The notes: generated from the letters alone by a model not told the origin. A DNA stretch of 10,840 nt from a virus (UHGV-0082263), one strand, 5' to 3'. Shown: positions 1-10,840, numbered from the stretch's first letter. Program-made: numbers and translations.

Positions 1-600
1 ACGGAATAGAGATAACACGAGGAGTGGTTAGAAATGGCTAAAGTTCTGGTGCTTTTACATAGCTAAACACGTACATTCAACTACCTGTTAATAACAGGAC
101 AATATCAGGTGAATCCCTATTCAATTTAAAGGCATTTTCCCAAGTATCTAAGCAGTTTTACACAGATTCTATGCAGTTGGTCACTATCAATATTCCCTCA
201 AAGTGACTATCAAGCTGCTTAACAGTTTTCCATGTGAAAATGTGATGAAGGTTTCTTGAGGTGGGCTTAACAGATGCTATGAAGAAAGTCAATAGATATT
301 TTAAAATTCTGCAAAGGGGGTCACATAGCTGGTGTGACAGGTACTTAGCAGCTACAGACATCTGTCTGATATTTTTGAAGATTCGGGGAAGATGAGATTC
401 AAAGAGGGCTAGTCATTTTTTATAAAAATTTTCAGAGTCTGAAAAGTTACTGTACAGATTTTGCACAATCTTACCAAGCCTCATAGTTGATTCGATTAGA
501 AGCTAATCTCATAGAAAGCTCTGTAGAGAGTTTTAACCCCATTTTTAGGGGTAGTCTATAGGTATGTACCAACCATCTTAAAATAAGGTGGTAAAATCGC

Positions 601-630
601 TTAGAATGCGTTACAGAGCGTCTGAGAAGC
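601..630 (+). repeat. Repeat element E1 (ttagaatgcgttacagagcgtctgagaagc), core CGTTACAGAGCG
   Basis: Its reverse complement (gcttctcagacgctctgtaacgcattctaa) matches 4049-4078 at 27/30 positions: 16 identical, a 4-nt block with 3 mismatches (gtaa vs caat), then 10 identical. Lies in a region with no convincing CDS. Confidence 0.75.
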
Positions 631-749
631 TATATTCACAGATTTTACTAAAGTCTCAGACTTTCTAAGTGGTCTTTTTAACAGGAGGGGTTCCTATGGT
701 CATTATCACCCTCTCTCTCGCTTAGTGAGCTACACAGACCTAGAGAACA

Positions 750-766
750 TGCTCTGTAACGCCTTC
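750..766 (-). repeat. Repeat element E4, partial inverted copy of the E1 core (tgctctgtaacgccttc)
   Basis: Matches the reverse complement of E1 at 15/17 positions, including the 12-mer gctctgtaacgc. With E1 it forms an inverted pair about 120 bp apart. Confidence 0.6.
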
Positions 767-1176
767 ACAAACATTGACTAAGGTCAACTTCATAAACTCA
801 GAGTTAAGTTACCTTGAAAGATTCTACCAAGAAACTACACAGGTGTTATTTAGTCTGACTGTGAAGGGATATTTAACGGGAGAAGAGATACGATATAACC
901 CGAAGGGAGAGTATCATCTTAACAATTATCTTAAGAATAAAACTGAAAAGTTCTTAACAGATGACTACCTAGAAAGAAGGGAACGATAAGACCAGAGGTA
1001 GTGACCTTGTTAAGTAGGTCGTTTCAAAGCCTCTTAAAAGTCTGTTAAGTAAGGTCATATGAACAATCATACCATTTTGTCAAGTGTTTTGTCTTTAGCA
1101 AAAAGTGCTAAACTCAACAAAAAGCACTAAATGCTAAAGAGACGATTAAGAAATATACTAAGAGGGCGCTTCGCTT

Positions 1177-1845
1177 GTGTCACATCCAATAATCAATATC
1201 GGTCGTTATCATGGTGGTTCTGATGACTGGCGTACACCGTATCGTTTATTTCGTAACCTACACCGTGAATTTGGTTTTACGTTAGATGGTGCCGCAACTA
1301 AGCATGACGCATTGCTACCACGGTTCACCGATGATATAAACCGTCAATCATGGGTTGGTGAACGGGTCTTCGTTAACCCGCCGTTTAGCATGGCTGAAAA
1401 GTTCCTCCTAAAAACCCCTGAAGCTGATGTGTGTGTATGTCTGGTTCCGCACAGGTCAAAGACAACTTACTGGCTTCGGTGTGTATATACAAACCCCTTT
1501 CTGCATGAGATTCGAACGTTACACCGAGCAGTCAAATACCTTCCACCAGCAGGGAAGAAAGGTGTTGTAGCGCGTTCACCGTTTGCAAGTTGCGTCCTAA
1601 TATACAGGAACACACCCCGTAAACCGAAGGTTGAAATTACCCAGACAATTTATTGTGGCGACACAATGCTTTTACTTGCCGTGGTTAACAGGGGTGGTTT
1701 ACGTGGAAGACCTCATATACACGATGCACAGACGCTTGACAGGTTGATTAAAATGTATGACCAAGAACAATCCATCAAGAGCATCGCAGAATCGCTAAGA
1801 ATGCCTCTAAGCACCACTTACAGGACTGTTCAAAGGTTGGGCTGA
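1177..1845 (+). CDS. Phage Dam-family DNA N6-adenine methyltransferase with C-terminal resolvase/Hin-like helix-turn-helix
   Basis: 222-aa ORF, GTG start at 1177 with AGAGGG at 1161-1166, stop TGA 1843-1845. Translation has WRTPYRLF near the N-terminus, FTLDGAA, and the catalytic NPPFS motif (D/N-P-P-Y/F), the pattern I recall for phage Dam-type methyltransferases. The last ~35 aa (LDRLIKMYDQEQSIKSIAESLRMPLSTTYRTVQRLG) resemble the Hin/resolvase-type HTH. Recognised from memory, no search run. Confidence 0.8.
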   Translation: MSHPIINIGRYHGGSDDWRTPYRLFRNLHREFGFTLDGAATKHDALLPRFTDDINRQSWVGERVFVNPPFSMAEKFLLKTPEADVCVCLVPHRSKTTYWLRCVYTNPFLHEIRTLHRAVKYLPPAGKKGVVARSPFASCVLIYRNTPRKPKVEITQTIYCGDTMLLLAVVNRGGLRGRPHIHDAQTLDRLIKMYDQEQSIKSIAESLRMPLSTTYRTVQRLG

Positions 1846-1891
1846 AATTCTCATATAGAGCACTGATTACGAGAATGTTAAAGAGGCGATT

Positions 1892-1914
1892 CCCCCCTCT
1901 CTGGGGTTATTCGC
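1892..1914 (+). repeat. Direct repeat copy 1 (cccccctctctggggttattcgc)
   Basis: Imperfect direct repeat of 2061-2083 (ctccctttctggggttatcgcc). Shared core is a C/T-rich tract followed by TCTGGGGTTAT and CGC. About 170 bp apart, in the 850-bp non-coding stretch downstream of the methyltransferase gene. Confidence 0.6.
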
Positions 1915-2060
1915 TTTTTACTGGAAGGGTTATTTTACAGAGGTTTTTCAAACCCCCTCAATAATAGAAACGAGCAACAAACGAAGAGCGAGAAATAAAA
2001 TATTGAGACTGGTGAACGGGGTCTGTAAAGATTGTTTAAGAAGTCGGTTAAGAAGGTGGC

Positions 2061-2083
2061 TCTCCCTTTCTGGGGTTATCGCC
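2061..2083 (+). repeat. Direct repeat copy 2 (ctccctttctggggttatcgcc)
   Basis: See copy 1. It is followed by cttagtgag (2090-2098), which also occurs at 720-728 right after another CCCTCTCTC tract (709-719). Confidence 0.6.
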
Positions 2084-2309
2084 TTGTATCTTAGTGAGTC
2101 CAGGAAGTTCTCTGTGAAGGGTCTTGTCAGTCCTTTATATTGGCTAATTACAACTCATTGAAAAATAAGTATTTTTAGAAATTACTGTCAGAGAGGTGAA
2201 TACTTGATAGATACAGCTTTCCGGTTCTGTCAAGCTGTTTTTTTAATAGATAGCACAAAATGCTAAAGATGCCCCTATACCATCACGTACAGGGGGTTTT
2301 GAAGGGAGT

Positions 2310-2498
2310 TTAACGGGGTTCTGTGTGGTTATCTGTTCGAGTCCTGTCCTTGAGGTCAAATGACCATTCACGACCAAACAATCGGAACACGATAAACACC
2401 CGAACGATGAAATAGCGGAGCAGAAGATCTGCAATCAATCCAATACCTCCACCAGCCCATACATCAGGTGACCCCAGCTCAGGAGGGAGATTTACCAT
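2310..2498 (-). CDS. Hypothetical small protein with one predicted hydrophobic helix (low confidence)
   Basis: 62-aa ORF on the - strand with ATG at 2498-2496 and AGAAGG 8 nt upstream on that strand. Translation contains GGGIGLIADLLLRYFIVRVFIVFRLF. Divergent from the 2699 gene. No motif recognised; could be spurious. Confidence 0.2.
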   Translation of the reverse strand: MVNLPPELGSPDVWAGGGIGLIADLLLRYFIVRVFIVFRLFGREWSFDLKDRTRTDNHTEPR

Positions 2499-2593
2499 TC
2501 AATGTACCTTCTGTGTGCAATGCAAAAACATGTGACCAAATACATAGCCACGCTTCATATTTCCCCCTCTCTCATAAACCATTATACCACAAA

Positions 2594-2613
2594 TGTTACG
2601 AATTTGTTACGAA
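2594..2613 (+). repeat. Tandem direct repeat TGTTACGAA-tt-TGTTACGAA (11-bp period)
   Basis: Two exact 9-mers at 2594-2602 and 2605-2613, immediately upstream of a -35-like TTGACA (2619-2624). Confidence 0.6.
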
Positions 2614-2618
2614 AATAC

Positions 2619-2660
2619 TTGACATTAGTCTTTGAAAATGCTAGTATTGTATATATAAGT
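2619..2660 (+). promoter_or_regulatory. Candidate sigma70-type promoter for the 2699-4041 cassette
   Basis: TTGACA at 2619-2624, 17-bp spacer, TAGTAT at 2642-2647; an AT-rich TGTATATATAAG tract at 2648-2659 is an alternative -10. Lies 40-80 bp upstream of ATG 2699. Hexamer match only, not validated. Confidence 0.35.
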
Positions 2661-2698
2661 TAACAGAATAATAACATCTTATGAGAGTCGGAACATGA

Positions 2699-3253
2699 AT
2701 GAGAGACGCAGAATTTAGAGCGATGCTTCAGGCATCGAGACAACGTAACAAGCACAACTCCTACGCTTACACAAACAACCCAACCAGCTACGAACTACCC
2801 AAGCTCACCAAGAAAGAACGCAAAGGCATTGACGAAGTAATTCGTAGCATTACGCCACGAGACAGATTTATGCCAACCAGAAAGAGCACCCAGAACACTA
2901 TTAAAAATTATCTGGCTAACTTTGATTCTTACGAACAATTACCAAGTAAGATTGAAGATGTAATTATCGGATTCTGTAGAAGTGAAGGCCACCCCAAATA
3001 CAACAGAAAGCTATTTTATCTGCTAAAGAATCTTGATGAAATTAACTCAGCTACCGTGACAAATCATCTTCAGCGTCAAGCAACCAGACTTAGCTACGAA
3101 TTACCAACCGATGCCTATTGTGCATTGCTTGCTGTAATGTGTGCAAAGCTAATTGGTATTGTTGAACATCATATTGCCGTTGGGAATATTGAGCCAATGG
3201 AAAACGAGCAACCAGACTTTGAGTTTGACCCGTATATTTTGGAGGAATTTTAA
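2699..3253 (+). CDS. Hypothetical protein (184 aa), first gene of a four-gene coupled cassette
   Basis: ATG 2699, stop TAA 3251-3253, 1 nt before the ATG of the next gene. SD is weak (GAGAG at 2683-2687). Acidic C-terminus (EPMENEQPDFEFDPYILEEF). No motif recognised. Confidence 0.55.
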   Translation: MRDAEFRAMLQASRQRNKHNSYAYTNNPTSYELPKLTKKERKGIDEVIRSITPRDRFMPTRKSTQNTIKNYLANFDSYEQLPSKIEDVIIGFCRSEGHPKYNRKLFYLLKNLDEINSATVTNHLQRQATRLSYELPTDAYCALLAVMCAKLIGIVEHHIAVGNIEPMENEQPDFEFDPYILEEF

Positions 3254-3254
3254 A

Positions 3255-3542
3255 ATGAAAACCAGACACACACTAACCAGAGTTACAAAGACAGCCTTTG
3301 AAGAACTTAACAAAATTAAGAAGGTTACAGGTCTTTCACATGCAGCAGTGATGAAGCTTGCAATTAACCGTGATATTAACGAGCAGGATTTGCTTAATAG
3401 TCGCTTAGAGGCAGCAAGACACCATATCAGGATTAAGCAAGATGACCTTGATAGTCTGAAATCTTTAAATGCTTTTGGACTGGATTTAGCAAGGTTGCTA
3501 AGCATCAAAATTCACAAGTTAAAGTTAGAGATGGGGGTCTGA
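3255..3542 (+). CDS. Putative ribbon-helix-helix (CopG/Arc-like) DNA-binding protein, 95 aa (tentative)
   Basis: ATG 3255 with GGAGGA at 3241-3246 (8-nt spacing). I chose this start over the track start at 3153, which would overlap the upstream gene by 100 nt. The N-terminus TLTRVTKTAFEELNKIKKVTGLSHAAVMKLAI fits the strand / helix / G-x-S turn / helix pattern of RHH folds. Pattern-level only. Confidence 0.5.
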   Translation: MKTRHTLTRVTKTAFEELNKIKKVTGLSHAAVMKLAINRDINEQDLLNSRLEAARHHIRIKQDDLDSLKSLNAFGLDLARLLSIKIHKLKLEMGV

Positions 3543-3757
3543 TGCTATGCGTTACCTTTGAATACCACACGGATAAAATGATTCGCTACATCTCCGACCT
3601 CCTGATTAAAGGAAACGGATTCGGTGACATCCATAACTCAAAAGATATTTTCATTAAAGCCATTGGCCCAAATGAAGCACTGAAAACAGCAGTTAAACCG
3701 GAATGGTTTGAGCGTCACAAGATTGAATTAGGTTATTGGGGTGAGGAGGTTTTATGA
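3542..3757 (+). CDS. Hypothetical protein (71 aa)
   Basis: ATG 3542 overlaps the upstream TGA (tgATG); G-rich tract at 3533-3537. Its stop overlaps the start of the next gene (ATGA at 3754-3757). No motif recognised. Confidence 0.45.
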   Translation: MLCVTFEYHTDKMIRYISDLLIKGNGFGDIHNSKDIFIKAIGPNEALKTAVKPEWFERHKIELGYWGEEVL

Positions 3758-4041
3758 AACCTTGGCATGAAGATGTTAGACGATATTTTACAGAACACCT
3801 TATCTATGATGAATCCAGTGATTCCCTGTGCTGGTCTGATGGAGAGTCAGTCACGATAAATACCGACGACTACGGCAACAAAACATTTAATATAGGCCGA
3901 TATACTTTCTACGTGAAATATGTTGTCTGGTTCCTTTATCATGGCTATCAATCCAACAAGCAAATTATCCATCGAAATGGTAACAGAGCCGATACCAGAC
4001 CAAAAAATCTTATGCAAGTCCGAGACTTTAAGAGAAATTAG
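3754..4041 (+). CDS. Small HNH endonuclease (HNH_3-like, phage/homing type), 95 aa
   Basis: ATG 3754 with GAGGAGG at 3743-3749, stop TAG 4039-4041. The C-terminal IIHRNGNRADTRPKNL matches the H-x-N-G-N ... D-x-R-x-x-N-L core I recall for the HNH_3/AP2-type family. No search run. Confidence 0.55.
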   Translation: MKPWHEDVRRYFTEHLIYDESSDSLCWSDGESVTINTDDYGNKTFNIGRYTFYVKYVVWFLYHGYQSNKQIIHRNGNRADTRPKNLMQVRDFKRN

Positions 4042-4048
4042 AAAAACA

Positions 4049-4078
4049 GCTTCTCAGACGCTCTCAATCGCATTCTAA
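4049..4078 (-). repeat. Repeat element E2, inverted copy of E1 (gcttctcagacgctctcaatcgcattctaa)
   Basis: 27/30 identical to the reverse complement of 601-630. Starts 8 nt after the HNH stop codon. Confidence 0.75.
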
Positions 4079-4149
4079 CGCAAAAAACTATCTTATTTTA
4101 GGGTGGGTAATACCACTGTACAGGCTACCCCTGAAAAAGACTGTTTAGC

Positions 4150-4172
4150 TCGTTACAGAGCGATTGAGGAGG
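4150..4172 (+). repeat. Repeat element E3, degenerate direct copy of E1 (tcgttacagagcgattgaggagg)
   Basis: Contains the exact 12-mer cgttacagagcg; about 18/23 identical to E1 608-630. Forms an inverted pair with E2 across ~70 bp and ends just upstream of the SD of the 4198 gene. Confidence 0.6.
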
Positions 4173-4197
4173 TCTGGTAAAAAGGAGATTTTAAGAA

Positions 4198-4503
4198 ATG
4201 AATTATTCAATGCAAGTTATGGTTGACCAAGAAACTATGAATTGGCTTAATGACCTGAACAGGTCAGGCTTTAATATCTATTTCATGCATTGTTTTGAAG
4301 CATCAACGTATATTGACAAGCATATAATCAACGAAATTAAACTTGGTGACTTTGTTCACAAACTGGAAGTAACAGACCCAGACTACAAGAGATTTATCAC
4401 AAGCGAATGCAACCGACTTGATTTAAGCCCGGAGCAATTATTGAAGCTGAATGTATTCTTAACCTATCAGAATGAATTAAACCCTTACAGTGAGGTGATG
4501 TAA
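4198..4503 (+). CDS. Hypothetical protein (101 aa)
   Basis: ATG 4198 with AAAGGAG at 4181-4187, stop TAA 4501-4503. No motif recognised. Confidence 0.5.
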   Translation: MNYSMQVMVDQETMNWLNDLNRSGFNIYFMHCFEASTYIDKHIINEIKLGDFVHKLEVTDPDYKRFITSECNRLDLSPEQLLKLNVFLTYQNELNPYSEVM

Positions 4504-4580
4504 TGATGCTCGTTATTCTCTGGACGGCTTTAGGGTTATTTGTTGGTTGCTGGGTAGGTAATACGGTAAATAAGAATTGA
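4503..4580 (+). CDS. Small hydrophobic peptide (24-25 aa), possible membrane peptide
   Basis: Tandem ATGs at 4503 and 4506 overlapping the upstream TAA; GAGGTG at 4492-4497 (5 or 8 nt spacing); stop TGA 4578-4580. Translation MMLVILWTALGLFVGCWVGNTVNKN is one hydrophobic helix plus a short polar tail. Below the length cutoff of the ORF track. Confidence 0.35.
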   Translation: MMLVILWTALGLFVGCWVGNTVNKN

Positions 4581-4604
4581 TGTTACCAATCTGTTAAAAA
4601 GCTG

Positions 4605-4633
4605 TTGACAAATAACCTTAAGCATGACATAAT
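4605..4633 (+). promoter_or_regulatory. Near-consensus sigma70-type promoter (TTGACA - 17 bp - CATAAT)
   Basis: Perfect -35 TTGACA at 4605-4610, exactly 17-bp spacer, -10 CATAAT at 4628-4633 (5/6 to TATAAT). Predicted start about 4640. First downstream gene with an SD is at 5034. Confidence 0.5.
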
Positions 4634-4642
4634 TTTAATTAT

Positions 4643-4659
4643 AGAGAGAATTTCTCTCT
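4643..4659 (+). promoter_or_regulatory. Perfect palindrome AGAGAGAA-t-TTCTCTCT at the predicted transcript start (operator candidate or 5-prime hairpin)
   Basis: 8-bp arms with a 1-nt centre, beginning about 10 nt after the -10 hexamer. Confidence 0.45.
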
Positions 4660-4808
4660 TATTTCTTTCAACAATTCCATCTACATCTAGGGATAGTTAT
4701 TCTGAAAGGTGCAATGCTTTTCGCTACATGGCCTCTTATATAACCTGAGAGGCTATCTCGAAAAGTCTTTGTTCATTCATTCGTTTGAATCCTTTACAGC
4801 TTTGCCCT

Positions 4809-4836
4809 GATTCATGATTAGGGCTTTCTTTAAGAG
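4809..4836 (+). repeat. Leader direct repeat copy 1 (gattcatgattagggctttctttaagag)
   Basis: About 25/29 identical to 4913-4941. Confidence 0.55.
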
Positions 4837-4912
4837 TTTTTAAACAGAGCTTTTAAAGAAAGTTTTCCTGAAACTTCGTTAACGTTATAAGCAAACCTTC
4901 AAAGCCCTTCAC

Positions 4913-4941
4913 AGATTATGTTTAGGGCTTTTCTTAATAGA
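4913..4941 (+). repeat. Leader direct repeat copy 2 (gattatgtttagggcttttcttaatagag)
   Basis: Direct repeat of 4809-4836. Its 3-prime end overlaps the 13-mer tcttaatagagca (4932-4944), whose perfect reverse complement tgctctattaaga lies at 4993-5005. Confidence 0.55.
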
Positions 4942-4992
4942 GCATCTTTAATAAATCGTTAAGTCATCTTCTAAGTGTATTGGCGTTGAAGG

Positions 4993-5005
4993 TGCTCTAT
5001 TAAGA
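4993..5005 (+). repeat. 13-bp perfect inverted-repeat partner (tgctctattaaga) of 4932-4944
   Basis: Exact reverse complement of 4932-4944, 48 bp away and about 15 nt upstream of the SD (AGAGGA 5021-5026) of the 5034 gene. Confidence 0.6.
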
Positions 5006-5033
5006 AATAACCACACACTTAGAGGAAAAAATA

Positions 5034-5744
5034 ATGACAAACGATATTTACATTAATGGCAAAGTGATTGATAGCTTCGGTGACTGGTCGCCACAGACTG
5101 AACATCCAGCTATCACTATCCAGCGCAAAGAACACGATGAAAGAATTGCACTTGAGCAAGAGTTAAAGATGTCACCAAAGGTAATTTCCTTTGTGTCTCC
5201 TGAGCCTCAAGAGATGCCTGATGTATGCAAAACTGAAGCATTACTTGAGCTTGAGCGTGAATATTACCCACAGTTAAAAGCACAGCGTATTAAACTTGAT
5301 GACGCTTACAGCAAAGTTACCCTGATGCAATCAGCTATTGAGCCGTCAGAATTTGAGATTCAGGATGAATTGTCACAGAAACCATTTGTCTATTACAAAT
5401 ATGAAGACAATGATGGTTTTGGTACTTTTCCTGAGAATATCCCAGACGTGATTAATAATCTTTCTGACGGATATCGAATTGTGAAGATGGTTAAGGCATC
5501 AAGAGGTGCTGGTCAGTTTATCTACATGACCAATAAAAGCGATGAAGAACTCTGTGAAATTGCTAAACAGAACATCTTGGCATCACGTAACAAGCAGCTT
5601 GATAGTGCTAAGTTGTATCTCTCAAGAGAGCTTCAGGCTATGAAAGAGCTTGTGAAAGAATATGAAGATGCTAAGAAGGTTGCTATGCAGGCTGATATTG
5701 AGCAGCTTACGAAGATTTCTCAGAAATATGCAAAGGCTATTTGA
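5034..5744 (+). CDS. Hypothetical protein (236 aa), first gene of the operon containing the tape-measure gene
   Basis: ATG 5034 with AGAGGA at 5021-5026, stop TGA 5742-5744. Acidic, helix-rich C-terminal half. No motif recognised. Confidence 0.6.
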   Translation: MTNDIYINGKVIDSFGDWSPQTEHPAITIQRKEHDERIALEQELKMSPKVISFVSPEPQEMPDVCKTEALLELEREYYPQLKAQRIKLDDAYSKVTLMQSAIEPSEFEIQDELSQKPFVYYKYEDNDGFGTFPENIPDVINNLSDGYRIVKMVKASRGAGQFIYMTNKSDEELCEIAKQNILASRNKQLDSAKLYLSRELQAMKELVKEYEDAKKVAMQADIEQLTKISQKYAKAI

Positions 5745-5752
5745 GGTGATTA

Positions 5753-6169
5753 ATGAGTCCTATTTTTTATATTCTTAGAAAGAAGTTTGATGCTATCGAT
5801 GAGATTACCGGATATCTTCGTGAACGTATTTACGAAGGTGAGTCTCTGGAAGATTTAAAATTTGATGGTCGAGATGACTTAACTTTCCTGATTAGGGATG
5901 TTAATCGGGATATTGAGCGATTAAGAGATAGTTATAATCCACCAGAAATTACTGAAATGATAGACTTTGATGATGGAACAAGAACTATTAGCGTAGCGAT
6001 TGGTGGGAGTTACATCAGGGACTTTACCAGTAAAACTAATGAAGAGTTACTTGCTGAATTTAAAGATGACTATCTAAAAAATCTCGATTCTTATCAGGCA
6101 GAATTAGATAAGCGGTATCGGGATTTAGCTGGAAAAGGCTACTTAATAGAGGAATTGCTGGACTTCTAA
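5753..6169 (+). CDS. Hypothetical acidic protein (138 aa); tail-assembly-chaperone-like by position only
   Basis: ATG 5753 with GAGGTG at 5743-5748. Acidic composition and a position two genes upstream of the tape-measure gene fit a G-type tail assembly chaperone, but no motif supports this. Confidence 0.5.
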   Translation: MSPIFYILRKKFDAIDEITGYLRERIYEGESLEDLKFDGRDDLTFLIRDVNRDIERLRDSYNPPEITEMIDFDDGTRTISVAIGGSYIRDFTSKTNEELLAEFKDDYLKNLDSYQAELDKRYRDLAGKGYLIEELLDF

Positions 6170-6192
6170 TTGAAACTAATGTGAGGTGGTGA

Positions 6193-6411
6193 ATGATTGA
6201 TTTAACAGAACGCTATGAGCTTATTAAAGCAATTAGTGAACGATTGAAAGAACAACCCAACAAACCAAAGCTACGAATTGGAAATCAACGTCGAGTTATC
6301 ACCTCACACAAACCAAAGGTACGTAAGATTCCTTCATGGTGCTTAGATAAATTACCATGTGACGCACAGATTTTAGGTGATGATGGGATGTATTCTTACG
6401 TTTACCATTAA
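6193..6411 (+). CDS. Hypothetical basic protein (72 aa)
   Basis: ATG 6193 with GAGGTGG at 6183-6189. No motif recognised. Confidence 0.45.
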   Translation: MIDLTERYELIKAISERLKEQPNKPKLRIGNQRRVITSHKPKVRKIPSWCLDKLPCDAQILGDDGMYSYVYH

Positions 6412-6454
6412 TTTGAGATTAGCTTCTAATAGAATTGGTTGGGTAAAAATCTAC

Positions 6455-6495
6455 GGGAGAGATTATCGAGTGACATCGGTAGCCCTCCCTTTTTT
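6455..6495 (+). terminator. Possible intrinsic terminator or attenuator hairpin followed by a T6 run
   Basis: GGGAGAG (6455-6461) pairs with CCCTCCC (6483-6489) with one mismatch, then TTTTTT (6490-6495). The 21-nt loop is atypically long, and the site sits inside an apparent operon. Confidence 0.25.
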
Positions 6496-6545
6496 GTATA
6501 TGAGGATAGTCTTCTATCCGAAGTCTATGAGGTGAAATATGAACA

Positions 6546-8717
6546 ATGGCACAGTTTAAAGTTGATGATTTTCTGATTGAGTTAAGTTTTAACTCTCAGA
6601 AAGTTTTAAAAGGTCTGGAAAAAGCCGAGAAACAAACGATGCAGGTAGCATCACGAATTGAGAAGCGATTGAATAAGGCGTTTAAAGTGAATCCTACGCC
6701 TTTAAATGATTCTCTCAAACTAATGGAAAAGAATGTCGATAAAACTGTTTCCAAGATTGAGCAGCGTCTTAAAAACACTAAAGCGTTTAAGATTAAAACT
6801 GAAATTGAGGATACTCTAAAGCCACTTAGACAGCCAAGACAGCCACGAATTAGCGGCAACAGAGCAATCACAGCAGCGCATAGCGTGAATATGTCTAAGC
6901 TTGGTGATATTAATCCGCTGATGGCTAAAATGTTTAAAGCACAGTATTACAGCTTAAGCGGTAAGGCTGGTAATATTGGAAGTGAAAAGTTTAACGCTGA
7001 ACTTGCAATATTAAATCAATCTCTTCGTGAAACGTTGAATAAACTCAGGTCACAGACAAAGACCACCAGCATTAACAATACAAGCGACGCATTTAATAAT
7101 CTTGCAAGCAATGCAATCAAGTTATCTGGTGCATTTTACTCTGTGATGGGTGCTCTTAACGCTTACAAGGCCATCATGAATGCAGGTCTTAAACGAGATT
7201 CCGCACAGAGAGCCGCTAAGTTTGTACTTGGTGATAAAGCATCTGAAGCTGAGGTATTTATTCGAAATTTAGCAGACAAGACAGGTCTTAATATCTCTGA
7301 AGGGCTATCAAGCTACGCTAAGTTTGCAGCAGGTGCTCAGGGTTCTATGTCACAGGAACAGACACAGGAGCTATTTGGTAATGCAACGGCTATGAGTCGC
7401 TTAATGGGGCTTTCTAACGATGAGCTAAACGGCATTTTGAAAGCTTTTGAGCAGATGGCGAGCAAGGGCAAGATTCAGGCTGAAGAGCTTCGTGGACAGT
7501 TGGGTGACCGTATGGCTGGTGCATTTAAGCTATTCGCTGAAGCATTGGGTATGACTGCTACAGAGCTTGATAAAGCGATGAAAGACGGGAAGATTTTAAG
7601 TAGTGATACTCTCCCTAAAGTCGCTAAACAGATGGGCTTGATGATTGATAAAGCGGGTGGCTGGGCTGAAGTCGCTAAGAGCACTCAGACAGCTTTAGGG
7701 AAACTGGCTAACAACTGGGATGATACGATGGTGAAAATCTTCTCAGGTTCACAGGATGAGCTAAACGGCTTCTTATCCAGCCTGAGTAACCTGCTTAGTG
7801 AAATGGGGATGAGTTCTTCTATCGCTGGTGATGCTATCGGTGGACTTATCGACATGCTTAAAGCTGGTGTAGATGACATCCGTATCTTTAACAATCACCT
7901 TGAAGGCTGGATTTTACAGACTAAGAAGTTCTATTACAGCCTTGATGACACTAAACGAAAACTACTTGATGAAGTCGGTGATGGATTTATCAATTTTGTC
8001 AAAGGTCTTGCTATAGCGTTATCTGCAAAGACGCTATTCAGTGCCACTACAGGGATTATGAACCTGACAAGAGCAATCACAACGTTAGGTACAAGAGCTA
8101 ATCAGGTGGCTGGTCAGGTAGCTACTGGTAAAGGTGGTGGAAAACTGAAAGGTGTAGCTGGTGGTGTAGGTAGTGCTCTTGCAATTGGTTATGCTGATGA
8201 CGGTTATGAAACAGCGTTAGCATTAGCTTCAATGATTCCACAAATCAGAGGCGTCACTCTTGGTTTATATGCATTGAAGAAAGCACTGGATTTTATGAAT
8301 CAGGAAGTAGTCAAAAACGCTAATATGCATCCATCTGGGGTAGGTGTGGGTAGTGACTTTAATCCTGTGTATTCTGGTGACCCTAATAAACCGAATATGA
8401 TTAACGAAGGATGGAGTAGAATTTTTAGTTCAATGGGTGAATTGTTTAACAATGCCACAATGAATATTGCAAGATTCAATCATCCAGAATTGATTACCAT
8501 GAAACAAGATGCATCATTAACGAGCACTGACATCCAAAATCTAAGAGATGAAATTAGTGCTTTAAGTAAGCGTATTCAGGAGCCTGTGAAAGTTTCACTT
8601 GGTGGTGAAGTTGCCATTAAACCAGATGAAACCAGCTTTATGACCTTTAGCAGTAATATCTACGACCAATATGCAGAAGCTACGTTATTAAGTTCATCAT
8701 TCCCAGAAGATGATTGA
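6546..8717 (+). CDS. Phage tail tape-measure protein (723 aa)
   Basis: ATG 6546 with GAGGTGA at 6529-6535, stop TGA 8715-8717. The central segment LNGILKAFEQMASKGKIQAEELRGQLGDRMAGAFKLFAEALGMTATELDKAMKDGKILSSDTLPKV matches the conserved tape-measure domain signature as I recall it. Also has a glycine-rich hydrophobic stretch (GKGGGKLKGVAGGVGSALAIGY) and a long helical N-terminal region, both typical of tape-measure proteins. Confidence 0.8.
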   Translation: MAQFKVDDFLIELSFNSQKVLKGLEKAEKQTMQVASRIEKRLNKAFKVNPTPLNDSLKLMEKNVDKTVSKIEQRLKNTKAFKIKTEIEDTLKPLRQPRQPRISGNRAITAAHSVNMSKLGDINPLMAKMFKAQYYSLSGKAGNIGSEKFNAELAILNQSLRETLNKLRSQTKTTSINNTSDAFNNLASNAIKLSGAFYSVMGALNAYKAIMNAGLKRDSAQRAAKFVLGDKASEAEVFIRNLADKTGLNISEGLSSYAKFAAGAQGSMSQEQTQELFGNATAMSRLMGLSNDELNGILKAFEQMASKGKIQAEELRGQLGDRMAGAFKLFAEALGMTATELDKAMKDGKILSSDTLPKVAKQMGLMIDKAGGWAEVAKSTQTALGKLANNWDDTMVKIFSGSQDELNGFLSSLSNLLSEMGMSSSIAGDAIGGLIDMLKAGVDDIRIFNNHLEGWILQTKKFYYSLDDTKRKLLDEVGDGFINFVKGLAIALSAKTLFSATTGIMNLTRAITTLGTRANQVAGQVATGKGGGKLKGVAGGVGSALAIGYADDGYETALALASMIPQIRGVTLGLYALKKALDFMNQEVVKNANMHPSGVGVGSDFNPVYSGDPNKPNMINEGWSRIFSSMGELFNNATMNIARFNHPELITMKQDASLTSTDIQNLRDEISALSKRIQEPVKVSLGGEVAIKPDETSFMTFSSNIYDQYAEATLLSSSFPEDD

Positions 8718-8812
8718 TTTAACGGTGTTCTACGTGAATAAAGCAAAGTTAATACCCACACTGAAAAATAATTTTTACGTAGCTCACGCTTAACAGAGAA
8801 AATACTTATATA

Positions 8813-8856
8813 TCAAAGGCTTGGTTAAAAATGATTAAAATACACTAAGCCTTTGA
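8813..8856 (+). promoter_or_regulatory. 10-bp inverted repeat (tcaaaggctt ... aagcctttga) with 24-nt AT-rich spacer, just upstream of the SD of the 8874 gene
   Basis: Arms at 8813-8822 and 8847-8856 are exact reverse complements; the SD AAAGGAG at 8861-8867 follows. Confidence 0.4.
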
Positions 8857-8873
8857 AATCAAAGGAGAATTTA

Positions 8874-9662
8874 ATGATTTACACTAATCAAATCCGCTAC
8901 AGTGGCAAAGATGGCATCTATTTCCACTTAAGAGATAATGTAGATGCCTTCTTAACCCTATCAGCAACTGAGAACATGGAATTTGATAGTCCTATGCAGG
9001 TAACTACACAGAATATGCAATCAGGGCAAACAGTCACAGATAATGTGCAAAGAGCACCCAGAACAATCACTATTAGTGGTGTCGTCGTAGTTGGCTATGA
9101 AGGGAGCTTATTACTAACTCGTCAAGGCCAATTAGTAGAGAACTTCATCGACACTCTTGAAAGCTGGCGTGACCAGAAGCAGATTATTTCGGTCATCTGT
9201 AAAGATGGTATCAAGATTGATGATTCCATTATTACGAGTTTTAAAGCCTCTAAAGATGTTGGTATTTCAAATGGTCTAAGAATCCAGCTAACTTTTCAGG
9301 AAATTAACTTCAAAGCTGTTGTGGGTCAAACTGATATCTCGGCTGCAACTGGAAAGGCTGCCACTACGAATGATGGTGGTGTGACCAGTAAGAAGAATGC
9401 AGGTAACGTGACCACTGAACGCAATAACGCGCCTATGCTATCGTGCAAAGAGCTAATGAGTATTAGCGATGTATCCGGTTACGCTCCAGCTATCAGAAAT
9501 GATATTCTCGATGCTCAGATTAAGTGTAATAAGGCTTGGAAGCTGGACTATTCAGACTTAACAGAAGCTGAAAAAACCAACGTCACCAATGCTAATAGTA
9601 ACGCTGGTCGAGTAGCTTCAAAGCTTAAAAAGTACTCAGTGAACCCTAATAAAAAATACTAA
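8874..9662 (+). CDS. Hypothetical protein (262 aa); possible tail or baseplate component by position
   Basis: ATG 8874 with AAAGGAG at 8861-8867, preferred over the track TTG start at 8853. Stop TAA 9660-9662 overlaps the stop of the convergent recombinase gene. Sits directly downstream of the tape-measure gene. No motif recognised. Confidence 0.55.
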
Positions 9663-10786
9663 GCGTCCACCTCTTCCATATCACCAGCAGGATAAATCCT
9701 TGTTACTGGTTCACCAAAAATAAGCATATCATCTAATGACTGCATCTCATCGGTTGCTTCTTCAAGCGTTAAGGTGTGGTCATCTTTACCATCAAGAGGA
9801 AAACCACGAATCATATTTCCATTGTGAAGATATATATCCACCAGCTTTTCATTACCAGAAACAACAATCTCTTTCACCAGACGCTTAATGATAATCTGGG
9901 CTTCAGTTCTCCCCTCTACAGACTCCATATCAAGACCGCTTAAATCCAAGCTTGATACAGATTTTACCCTCGCCTTTTCTCGTGATAACTGAACTATCAG
10001 TTCATCTTTTTCTTCCTGTTTAACCCGTAGTGCTTCCTGAATCTGAGTGATGTTAGGAAGCTGTATCAGCGTCTCAGTGAGTTTTTCCAGTTCACCATCA
10101 ACGGTGTTTAATCTTCTTTGTAGTTCATCTAATTTAGCTGTATCGGTAGCTTCATCGTGTAGCTGTGACAGTTTGCTGAACAGACGACTACAAAGCTGTG
10201 TATCAAGTAACTTTCTGGACACTGTACCGTAGCTACAACGGGACTCCTTATTACCATTGCAACGGTAAGTACCTTGATAAACGGGTTTACGTATCCCTGT
10301 AGGAGTCATTACAAGCCCACACTTACAACGGATAAGCCCCTTCAGTATGTTCACATATAGCCAGTGTTCACCGCTGGATGTTTTCCCCTTCCCTGTTTCC
10401 TCTAACAGTTGCTGTACAGCGTAAAACTTAGAATCTGTGACAATCTGAGGATAGAACCCTTCAATTTCTTCACGTAACACTGTTTTACGGTCTTCTGTAG
10501 AAATCTTGGCGGGAAGGTAACCTAATACACTTCGTGAAGTCAGGATGTGTTTAACGCTTAAAGCTGACCAGTTACCATCCGGTTTCTTAGTCTTGGATAT
10601 TCTGACCTTACGCTGATTAATGGTCGGGTAACCTTGTTCGTTTAGCCATTTACAGATAGCAAACATCGACATACCAGAAAGACGCTTGTCATAGATGATA
10701 TTCACCAGTGACGCTTTATCTTCATCAACGATGTAGTGTGAACCGTCTTCTGATAGCTCTAACCATCCGGGGGCTTGCTTACCCAT
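9659..10786 (-). CDS. Large serine recombinase, recombinase-domain + zinc-ribbon + coiled-coil portion (375 aa); N-terminal catalytic domain not in this ORF
   Basis: Translation opens with GKQAPGW...[37 protein letters not shown], which looks like the start of the recombinase domain. It then has [16 protein letters not shown]...[21 protein letters not shown], the four-Cys zinc ribbon typical of large serine recombinases, and a long coiled-coil-like C-terminus. No resolvase catalytic motif is present. An in-frame TGA (10796-10798) lies 3 codons upstream of the ATG and no SD precedes the ATG. Confidence 0.8.
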
Positions 10787-10840
10787 TGCGTATTTTCATG
10801 AAAGGAGATCACTCAATAACTTCCATCGAGATCGGGTAAT

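Follow-up and report, generated by a model that had tools for sequence, protein, structure and literature searches.

Why should a ~30-bp sequence stand, in inverted orientation, on both sides of a 3.4-kb gene block in an Escherichia coli island? The question is raised by UHGV-0082263, a viral stretch of 10,840 nucleotides analysed here at its full length (the window), in which the E. coli chromosome (wrbA locus) supplies positions 1-55 and an integrative island of ~10.7 kb the remainder. A sequence-only reading had counted four copies of the element, in two inverted pairs, around a Dam-type methyltransferase, a putative RHH protein and an HNH endonuclease, and had offered terminal inverted repeats of a cassette, inversion sites or scattered operators as explanations. 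Comparison with island relatives and with phage records revealed that the repeat is a phased three-unit motif shared with terminal non-coding regions of several virulent phage families, and that the palindromic cassettes carrying it are unusually conserved, stand at mosaic joints and do not mark an invertible or transposable segment (coordinates in Table 1).

Palindromic cassettes at the mosaic joints of the island

Positions 601-630 (TTAGAATGCGTTACAGAGCGTCTGAGAAGC) match the reverse complement of 4049-4078 at 27/30 positions, with three mismatches, as originally claimed, and 0/200 shuffled sequences yielded any such pair. The core CGTTACAGAGCG has exact copies at 609-620 and 4151-4162 and an 11/12 copy on the minus strand at 750-761; three matches compare with 0.39 expected, and as many were reached in only 3/200 shuffles. 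The similarity extends well past the 30-mers, since self-blast aligned 542-663 with the reverse complement of 4016-4137 (71% over 126 nt, E 2e-10), and in the relative L005 the alignment reaches 4177 (162 nt, E 7e-13). The inverted duplication thus measures ~125-165 bp. Each of the two modules, here called L and R, is itself an imperfect palindrome, and the four copies first described are therefore two palindromic cassettes with two arms each plus a stray unit. Of the two partial copies proposed earlier, 4150-4172 is a real arm (18/21 to 609-629), whereas 750-766 is no copy of the 30-mer but contains one 10-bp unit. The same holds for the two inverted pairs: 4049-4078 does pair with 4150-4177, but alignment and fold assign to 601-630 a different partner, a fifth and degenerate copy on the minus strand at ~512-534.

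An arm consists of three direct units of ~10 bp in phase, with the consensus (C)GCTTAGAAT-GCGwTnnAGA-GCGTyTnAGr, and the unit pattern GCG[AT]TnnAG[AG] occurs eight times in the window against 0.9 expected. The arms of the L-module pair in a shifted register (GCTCTGTA of the inner arm with TACAGAGC of the outer), and those of the R-module through CTCTCAATCGC (4061-4071) with GCGATTGAGGAG of the outer arm and CAGAC with GTCTG. In every variant a palindrome of 13-15 bp (AAAGTCTCAGACTTT, AAGTCCGAGACTT) lies 20-28 bp outside the inner arm, equivalent palindromes being present in the L014 and L020 variants; the one at 651-665 includes GTCTGAGA, the word of the third unit. A third cassette ("mid"), in direct orientation, stands just upstream of the promoter of the open reading frame (ORF) ORF184 in L004, L005, L006, L011 and L012; the window lacks it at ~2503-2510, where a 6-nt internal remnant and no target-site duplication are found. 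Predicted folds of the L, R and mid copies have free energies (dG) of -46 to -62 kcal/mol and z-scores of -2.8 to -4.5 on either strand; for the L-module the prediction is an extended hairpin from each strand (dG -53/-46, z -3.9/-3.0). The stray unit TCTGTAACGC is present in the window, L002, L003 and L004 and absent, as an exact 9-10-bp indel, from L005, L006 and L011.

Two further matches involve the same left region. A 22-mer containing TTAGAAGC, which is also the unit word of an array in Erwinia phage phiEa104 (see below), is possibly a further unit of this word family; its inverted copy (21/22) and a second long-range inverted match, between 466-502 and 6163-6199 (70% over 37 nt), both link the left non-coding region to the ORF72 spacers.

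The segment 3751-4200, comprising the HNH gene and the R-module, is 97-99.6% identical in 8-12 relatives, with the genes on both sides at 66-92%. Homology ends at 4201 in most relatives, where ORF101 (4198-4503) is swapped for unrelated small genes, and other mosaic breakpoints fall at 4016/4017 (L003, L010) and at 4052, within the arm (L014, L020). This conservation, together with the breakpoints at the edges, indicates that the R-module is strongly constrained or being homogenised, and that it marks a recombination joint beside a variable gene slot. The three differences between the two 30-mers (TTAC versus ATTG) are identical in independent relatives, an observation that also counts against inversion. 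For the conserved HNH gene and R-module together, a recent sweep or homing-like homogenisation beside the cargo slot could be envisaged. The R-module was detected in 394 of 5,426 complete E. coli genomes, in every one of them on the chromosome and within this island family, which disposes of a generic host repeat.

The motif in terminal regions of virulent phages

A blastn search of 570-640 against 50,697 phage records returned many Epseptimavirus and Tequintavirus genomes, which match 594-636 at 39/43 positions (E 6e-7), typically in two places per record. The matching sites in T5-like phages are annotated as terminal repeat, and in phage S114 the match forms the first ~40 nt of a feature named "similar to DNA injection stop signal". 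In T5 itself (AY587007) the copy occupies 9265-9300, with the palC terminator on one side and palD/IRD' on the other. The left terminal repeat, 10,139 bp long, extends ~870 bp further to the right. The T5 copy reads TTAGAATGCG-ATCTAGGA-CGTTTTAGG, and the 4049-4078 arm shares 15/15 positions with T5 9270-9284. As two-unit versions of the motif, T5 has the inverted repeats B (5285-5310) and B' (6184-6209); B' matches the island arm at 4143-4169 at 22/27 positions (E 1.3), a value not significant alone and suggestive only. No T5 homology beyond the motif was found in the window. In 25 T5-like phages these regions have been described as highly conserved, non-coding and without assigned function, with 131-bp inverted repeats 1.9-4.3 kb apart (Davison, 10.1101/866236). 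DnaA boxes, an idea taken from the T5 literature, were considered and dropped, as the window holds two exact boxes (156 and 459; 1.2 expected) and one-mismatch boxes are not enriched.

The motif is not limited to T5-like phages. When viral contigs were scanned for the exact pattern, 70 loci in 58 distinct contexts were obtained, among them T5-like contigs, contigs of 142-248 kb and a 121Q-type genome in which the motif occurs three times, and the flanks of these loci are shared beyond the search pattern, with the phage consensus AAAC-C / TTAGAATGCG / wTnnAGrrCG / TTTTAG..TATAT. Positions 591-623 are identical (33/33) to a 248-kb jumbo-phage contig, and the 4049-4078 arm matches 121Q-like phages at 24/24 positions. 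The motif is also present in Asteriusvirus, Seoulvirus and ~145-kb myoviruses of Vequintavirinae size; further matches include Vibrio phage phi 3 ("left terminal repeat") and phages in which the match lies <2 kb from the record end. In most phages it is single-copy. The repeat family to which the motif belongs is typical of non-coding terminal-repeat regions in virulent phages with direct terminal repeats. A scan of genome contigs with a pattern of 15 specified bases gave mostly chance matches across unrelated phyla, and a literature text search for the motif returned nothing relevant. In the 348-kb 121Q-type phage (L047, L053), a Chi sequence (GCTGGTGG) precedes two of its three motif copies by 13-33 nt on the same strand.

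In the Ounavirinae the motif takes the form of arrays. Phage phiEa104 (Kolesnikvirus) carries 12 TTAGAA units, all on the same strand, in a non-coding region of 1.43 kb that separates convergent gene blocks; they are arranged in five groups of two or three with a 10-12-bp phase. At the syntenic place, Felixounavirus wV8 has a non-coding region of 1.6 kb (13.9-15.5 kb) that is dense in TGTTAAG-type words and contains a degenerate array (TGTTAGAAGA GTGTTTAGAGG GCTATTTAGAAGG GTTATACAGAGG), and a degenerate array of the form TGTTAGAAG.. TTTAGAAGG.. TATACAGAGG is found in both wV8 and vB_EcoM_H12 (H12). Five Felixounavirus records open at one point in this region, corresponding to ~14,351 in wV8, and for two of them PhageTerm was used and direct terminal repeats were reported (PMC11737134); the shared record starts and that report together suggest that the wV8-type region holds the Felixounavirus genome ends.

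The left cassette is embedded in homology to such regions. The wV8 sequence aligns with 295-450 (70%, E 5e-9) and 977-1029 (81-83%, E 2e-7) of the window, phiEa104 matches 438-453 at 16/16 positions, and counterparts of the island blocks occur near the left end of H12 at 266-317, 530-553 and 645-685. Overall, the left blocks map to the first ~700 bp and the last ~100 bp of the H12 genome, with the L-module sitting between them. The left region is a patchwork, in altered order, of blocks homologous to the terminal non-coding region of Felixounavirus and Kolesnikvirus. This embedding applies to the left cassette only, and the junction sequence of a helper terminus is not present in the window. 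Among the relatives the left region is polymorphic in length: compared with window positions 168-239, the closest genome (TUM1886; L001 6177-6721) has ~140 and 330 additional bases, joined via short overlaps, with IS3 and IS1414 insertions downstream.

Competing explanations of the cassettes

The 27/30 inverted pair 3.4 kb apart invites the explanation that a serine recombinase inverts 631-4048 site-specifically, and the left region of some relatives does carry small serine recombinases. These are different genes of 182-189 aa in either orientation (L002 6582-7130, L004 3424-3993, L006 2249-2818), which occupy a spot empty in the window, and the relatives carrying them lack the left cassette. 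A chimeric query joining the left flank to the inverted HNH side was found at >=80% cover in none of the 5,426 complete E. coli genomes, as compared with 42 for the native left junction; the best cover, 73%, was merely the ordinary right side. All of the ~15 relatives examined are colinear and in the same orientation, no small invertase gene is present in the window, and the 30-mer, as three direct 10-bp units, lacks a dyad-symmetric crossover core of ~26 bp. The neighbouring serine recombinase, named earlier as a possible actor, is an integrase encoded at the far end of the island, where IS21 disrupts its gene. Inversion is thus extremely unlikely. Only slightly better placed, and still very unlikely, is a selfish miniature inverted-repeat element, or the terminal inverted repeats of a cassette without transposase. 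It would account for a ~130-bp palindrome at three different intergenic positions in the family, with the mid position empty in the window; but no target-site duplication is evident (only the mid site can be compared), the mid site of the window is not clean, given its internal remnant, in E. coli the cassette is confined to this island family, and its arms are homologous to single-copy phage motifs. Nor is the bracketed block 631-4048 gained or lost whole, with a breakpoint at each of the repeats: the genes from ORF184 to HNH are kept in L002 and L004, from which the left copy and the methyltransferase are missing, and L006 has the methyltransferase and neither L- nor R-module. These three relatives break the linkage between block and repeats, and the block is therefore not a unit of presence and absence.

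The third suggestion, that of scattered operator sites, remains viable as far as protein binding is concerned, although the partner is probably neither the RHH protein of the island nor the HTH of its methyltransferase. The sites are conserved at >97%, compared with 66-77% for the RHH gene; modules occur in relatives without the methyltransferase; the motif-bearing phages encode neither protein, nor any other island protein, near the motif; and homologues of the island proteins are confined to Enterobacteriaceae. Two facts point to a binding protein from host or phage: conservation of the motif far exceeds that of the DNA-binding candidates of the island, and phages without these candidates have the motif. 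Two other links were rejected. A connection with HNH homing fails because the island HNH has no close phage homologue and the T5 HNH match is generic (41 aa). As for a promoter, the motif includes TAGAAT and is followed by TATATT, with no usable -35 at 16-18 bp (scan 9/12), and a general promoter does not fit a motif that is single-copy in most phages.

We consider the chances about even that the arms are iteron-like protein-binding sites common to phage terminal regions and used in cis by the island. The units would bind a sequence-specific protein from the infecting phage or the host, not from the island, and the island would use them in cis in a helper-dependent step; recognition in packaging or in replication and the control of adjacent genes in response to a phage are the candidates. 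The cassette, of which the window has two oppositely oriented copies and relatives a third upstream of ORF184, may double, being so well conserved, as a homologous-recombination joint for swapping neighbouring cargo genes. A specific version of this explanation, a packaging or terminus signal in which the palindrome (651-665, 4016-4028) would be the cleavage site and the array would hold small-terminase sites, allowing a helper to package the island, draws on the motif lying in terminal-repeat regions of phages with direct terminal repeats and on the combination of a symmetric site and a phased array common to the island cassettes and T5 (motif, then palD). The 95-aa protein of the island weakly matches P27-type small terminase (E 7e-4), with an HNH gene adjacent, but this match is below the curated cutoff and the structure model is uninformative (pLDDT 46). 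Two or three oppositely oriented copies would be odd for a packaging start, the helper junction is missing from the window, and the island is just 10.7 kb without capsid genes; this version is accordingly judged improbable.

An RNA-level element, with the R and mid cassettes transcribed as a ~130-nt hairpin for processing or stability (e.g. by RNase III) or for translation control, is a genuine alternative, if likewise rather unlikely, and all cassette types are predicted to fold into the strong hairpins described above. The R-module separates the HNH stop from ORF101, no promoter or terminator is predicted in this interval, arm complementarity is kept in all three cassette types, partly via a register shift, and 13 cells changed on both sides, as compared with 4.5 in shuffles. 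Against this, the control slid by one position (-1) reaches the same covariation score as the true register, the mid copies contain uncompensated arm changes (e.g. CAACCAC in L006), the central parts of L and R are not structurally conserved, a lone arm is conserved in phages without the partner arm, and there is no Rfam match. Both strands fold equally, as those of any DNA palindrome would.

Several observations weigh against the protein-binding explanation itself. In phages the units form same-orientation arrays or single groups, so that palindromic pairing is specific to the island, its nearest phage parallel being T5 IRB/IRB'. The similarity to T5 spans just ~43 nt, the exact 21-nt pattern is absent from wV8, which holds the degenerate array only, and the T5 stop signal is described in a 2026 preprint just as "rich in repeats and palindromes". 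Finally, the R and mid cassettes are parts of transcription units, and a function in the RNA would suit this position equally.

A bolder extension is that the three-unit motif is a common cis signal in the terminal repeats of unrelated virulent phages (T5-like, Ounavirinae, Vequintavirinae-size, Asteriusvirus and Seoulvirus), read by one conserved host or phage factor during DNA entry or end processing and copied by a satellite-like island that senses or exploits several phages. We regard this as unlikely; if true, it would offer a minimal and tractable handle on the 50-year-old question of the T5 injection-stop repeats. The first-step-transfer repeats of T5 have been catalogued for decades without a mechanism, and their 30-40-nt core, phased at 10 bp, recurs in terminal non-coding DNA of several unrelated virulent phage families. 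This narrows the search to one short motif, for whose binder a 10.7-kb E. coli island is an easy test bed. Judging from our literature search, the kinship between these cassettes, the T5 injection-stop region and Ounavirinae genome ends had not been described before.

The island and its parallels in known systems

The island family occurs at wrbA, yecE and tonB in several hundred of the complete E. coli genomes (~7%), with relatives also in Salmonella, Citrobacter and Shigella, and no paper on it was found in the literature search; it is likely an undescribed satellite of virulent Felix O1-like myoviruses. Parts of its tape measure and Dit genes (~7450-7590 and 8889-9407) share up to ~93% DNA identity with Felixounavirus phages. 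No capsid, terminase or replication genes were seen in the window, which also holds no tRNA genes, and protein family searches recognised no initiator, primase or helicase encoded by the island.

The operon downstream of the 2619-2647 promoter comprises ORF184, the 95-aa RHH-like protein, ORF71 and the HNH endonuclease (3754-4041), and is followed by ORF101, ORF236, ORF138 and ORF72. Pfam, PHROG, NCBIfam and PADLOC gave no assignment for the six numbered ORFs, Rfam gave no relevant match in the window or the phage loci, and AlphaFold models of island proteins reached a pLDDT of ~46. ORF184 homologues are also found in Salmonella, Shigella, Citrobacter, E. albertii and E. fergusonii. The methyltransferase, present in only some relatives, is of the Dam family fused to a resolvase-type HTH (weak HTH_7 and HTH_23 matches). 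At the right end, an IS21-family element (10787-10840) breaks the recombinase gene, and this copy of the island is therefore probably immobile.

Table 1. Features of the window, with the cassettes and their parts listed before the surrounding island
Feature	Position	Strand	Basis or remark
L-module, ~165-bp imperfect palindrome, inverted copy of R-module	~500-665	-	self-blast, alignment, fold
L-module inner arm, TTAGAAT / GCGTTACAGA / GCGTCTGAGA / AGC	601-630	+	27/30 to reverse complement of 4049-4078; phage matches
L-module outer arm, degenerate, AGCTCTGTAGAGAG, counterpart of 4150-4177	512-534	-	alignments, fold
Perfect 15-bp palindrome AAAGTCTCAGACTTT beside L arm	651-665		read from sequence
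R-module, palindromic cassette between HNH stop (4041) and ORF101 start (4198)	4016-4177	+	
Near-palindrome AAGTCCGAGACTT, counterpart of 651-665, overlapping 3' end of HNH gene	4016-4028		alignment
R-module inner arm, TTAGAAT / GCGATTGAGA / GCGTCTGAGA / AGC on minus strand	4049-4078	-	
R-module outer arm, CGTTACAGA / GCGATTGAGG / AGGTCTGG	4150-4177	+	18/21 to 609-629; fold
Solitary 10-bp unit TCTGTAACGC (reverse complement GCGTTACAGA), the earlier 750-766 copy	752-761	-	11/12 core match
22-mer containing TTAGAAGC	490-511	+	inverted copy 6414-6435, 21/22
Left non-coding region embedding the L-module	198-1029	+	Ounavirinae terminal-region blocks
Ounavirinae-homologous blocks	198-214, 294-318, 402-458, 952-973, 977-1029		
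Whole island	56-10786		large serine recombinase, Felix O1-type tape measure and Dit gene
Dam-type methyltransferase, C-terminal HTH	1177-1845		
Sigma-70 promoter of operon, strong	2619-2647		promoter prediction
Tape measure gene	6546-8717		Felix O1-type
Dit-like baseplate gene	8874-9662		Felix O1-type
Large serine recombinase	9659-10786	-	cut by IS21 end at 10787

Two non-coding stretches of the island deserve mention. Direct repeats at 2593-2613 (TGTTACGAA-TT-TGTTACGAA; ATGTTAATGAAATGTTAAAAAA in relatives) abut the -35 element of the operon promoter. The word TGTTAA(G) is the dominant repeat of the Felixounavirus terminal non-coding region, where AGTTACGTAAA occurs twice just before the right end of the phage, and the island repeats may be a helper-responsive operator. 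A near-consensus promoter (4605-4633; TTGACA-17-CATAAT with TG) precedes ~400 bp without an ORF (to 5033), a stretch with a hairpin (4643-4659), terminator-like hairpins (4804-4824, ~4895-4935), direct repeats (4814-4836/4918-4940) and an inverted repeat (4930-4951/4986-5007); it is a candidate small RNA or leader, with no Rfam match.

Among known systems, T4-type phages possess promoter-early stem-loops, which are mobile intergenic regulatory cassettes, and other conserved boundary sequences likewise mediate module shuffling. The island cassettes resemble them as conserved, hairpin-forming intergenic repeats with mosaic breakpoints and variable cargo at their edges, but contain no recognisable promoter and have no sequence relationship to them. 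The replication origins of satellites of the Staphylococcus aureus pathogenicity island (SaPI) type consist of two iteron sets around an A+T-rich spacer; the cassettes, occurring in multiple copies per element and in an island without its own recognisable initiator, primase or helicase, differ in these respects, and share with them two inverted sets of phased repeats around a ~75-bp spacer with A/T runs, placed directly after an operon.

With the first-step-transfer repeats of T5 the island shares the motif itself, its non-coding location, the ~10-bp phased units, the adjoining palindrome and inverted copies a few kb apart around a variable block of small genes. The T5 copies, however, belong to a virulent phage, in whose 10-kb terminal repeat they are associated with IRC-spacer-IRD repeats of 131 bp that include DnaA boxes and have no island counterpart, whereas the island copies are chromosomal at wrbA; moreover, the T5 copies point outward from the gene block and the 27/30 pair of the island points inward. 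The Ounavirinae arrays (phiEa104, Felix O1, wV8 and vB_EcoM_H12; TTAGAAG/TGTTAAG) are several same-strand groups, degenerate and without the exact 21-nt pattern in Felixounavirus, in contrast to palindromic pairs that also occur inside an operon. Like the island cassettes, these arrays combine the same unit word with a 10-12-bp phase, and they belong to the very phage lineage of the island tape measure and Dit genes.

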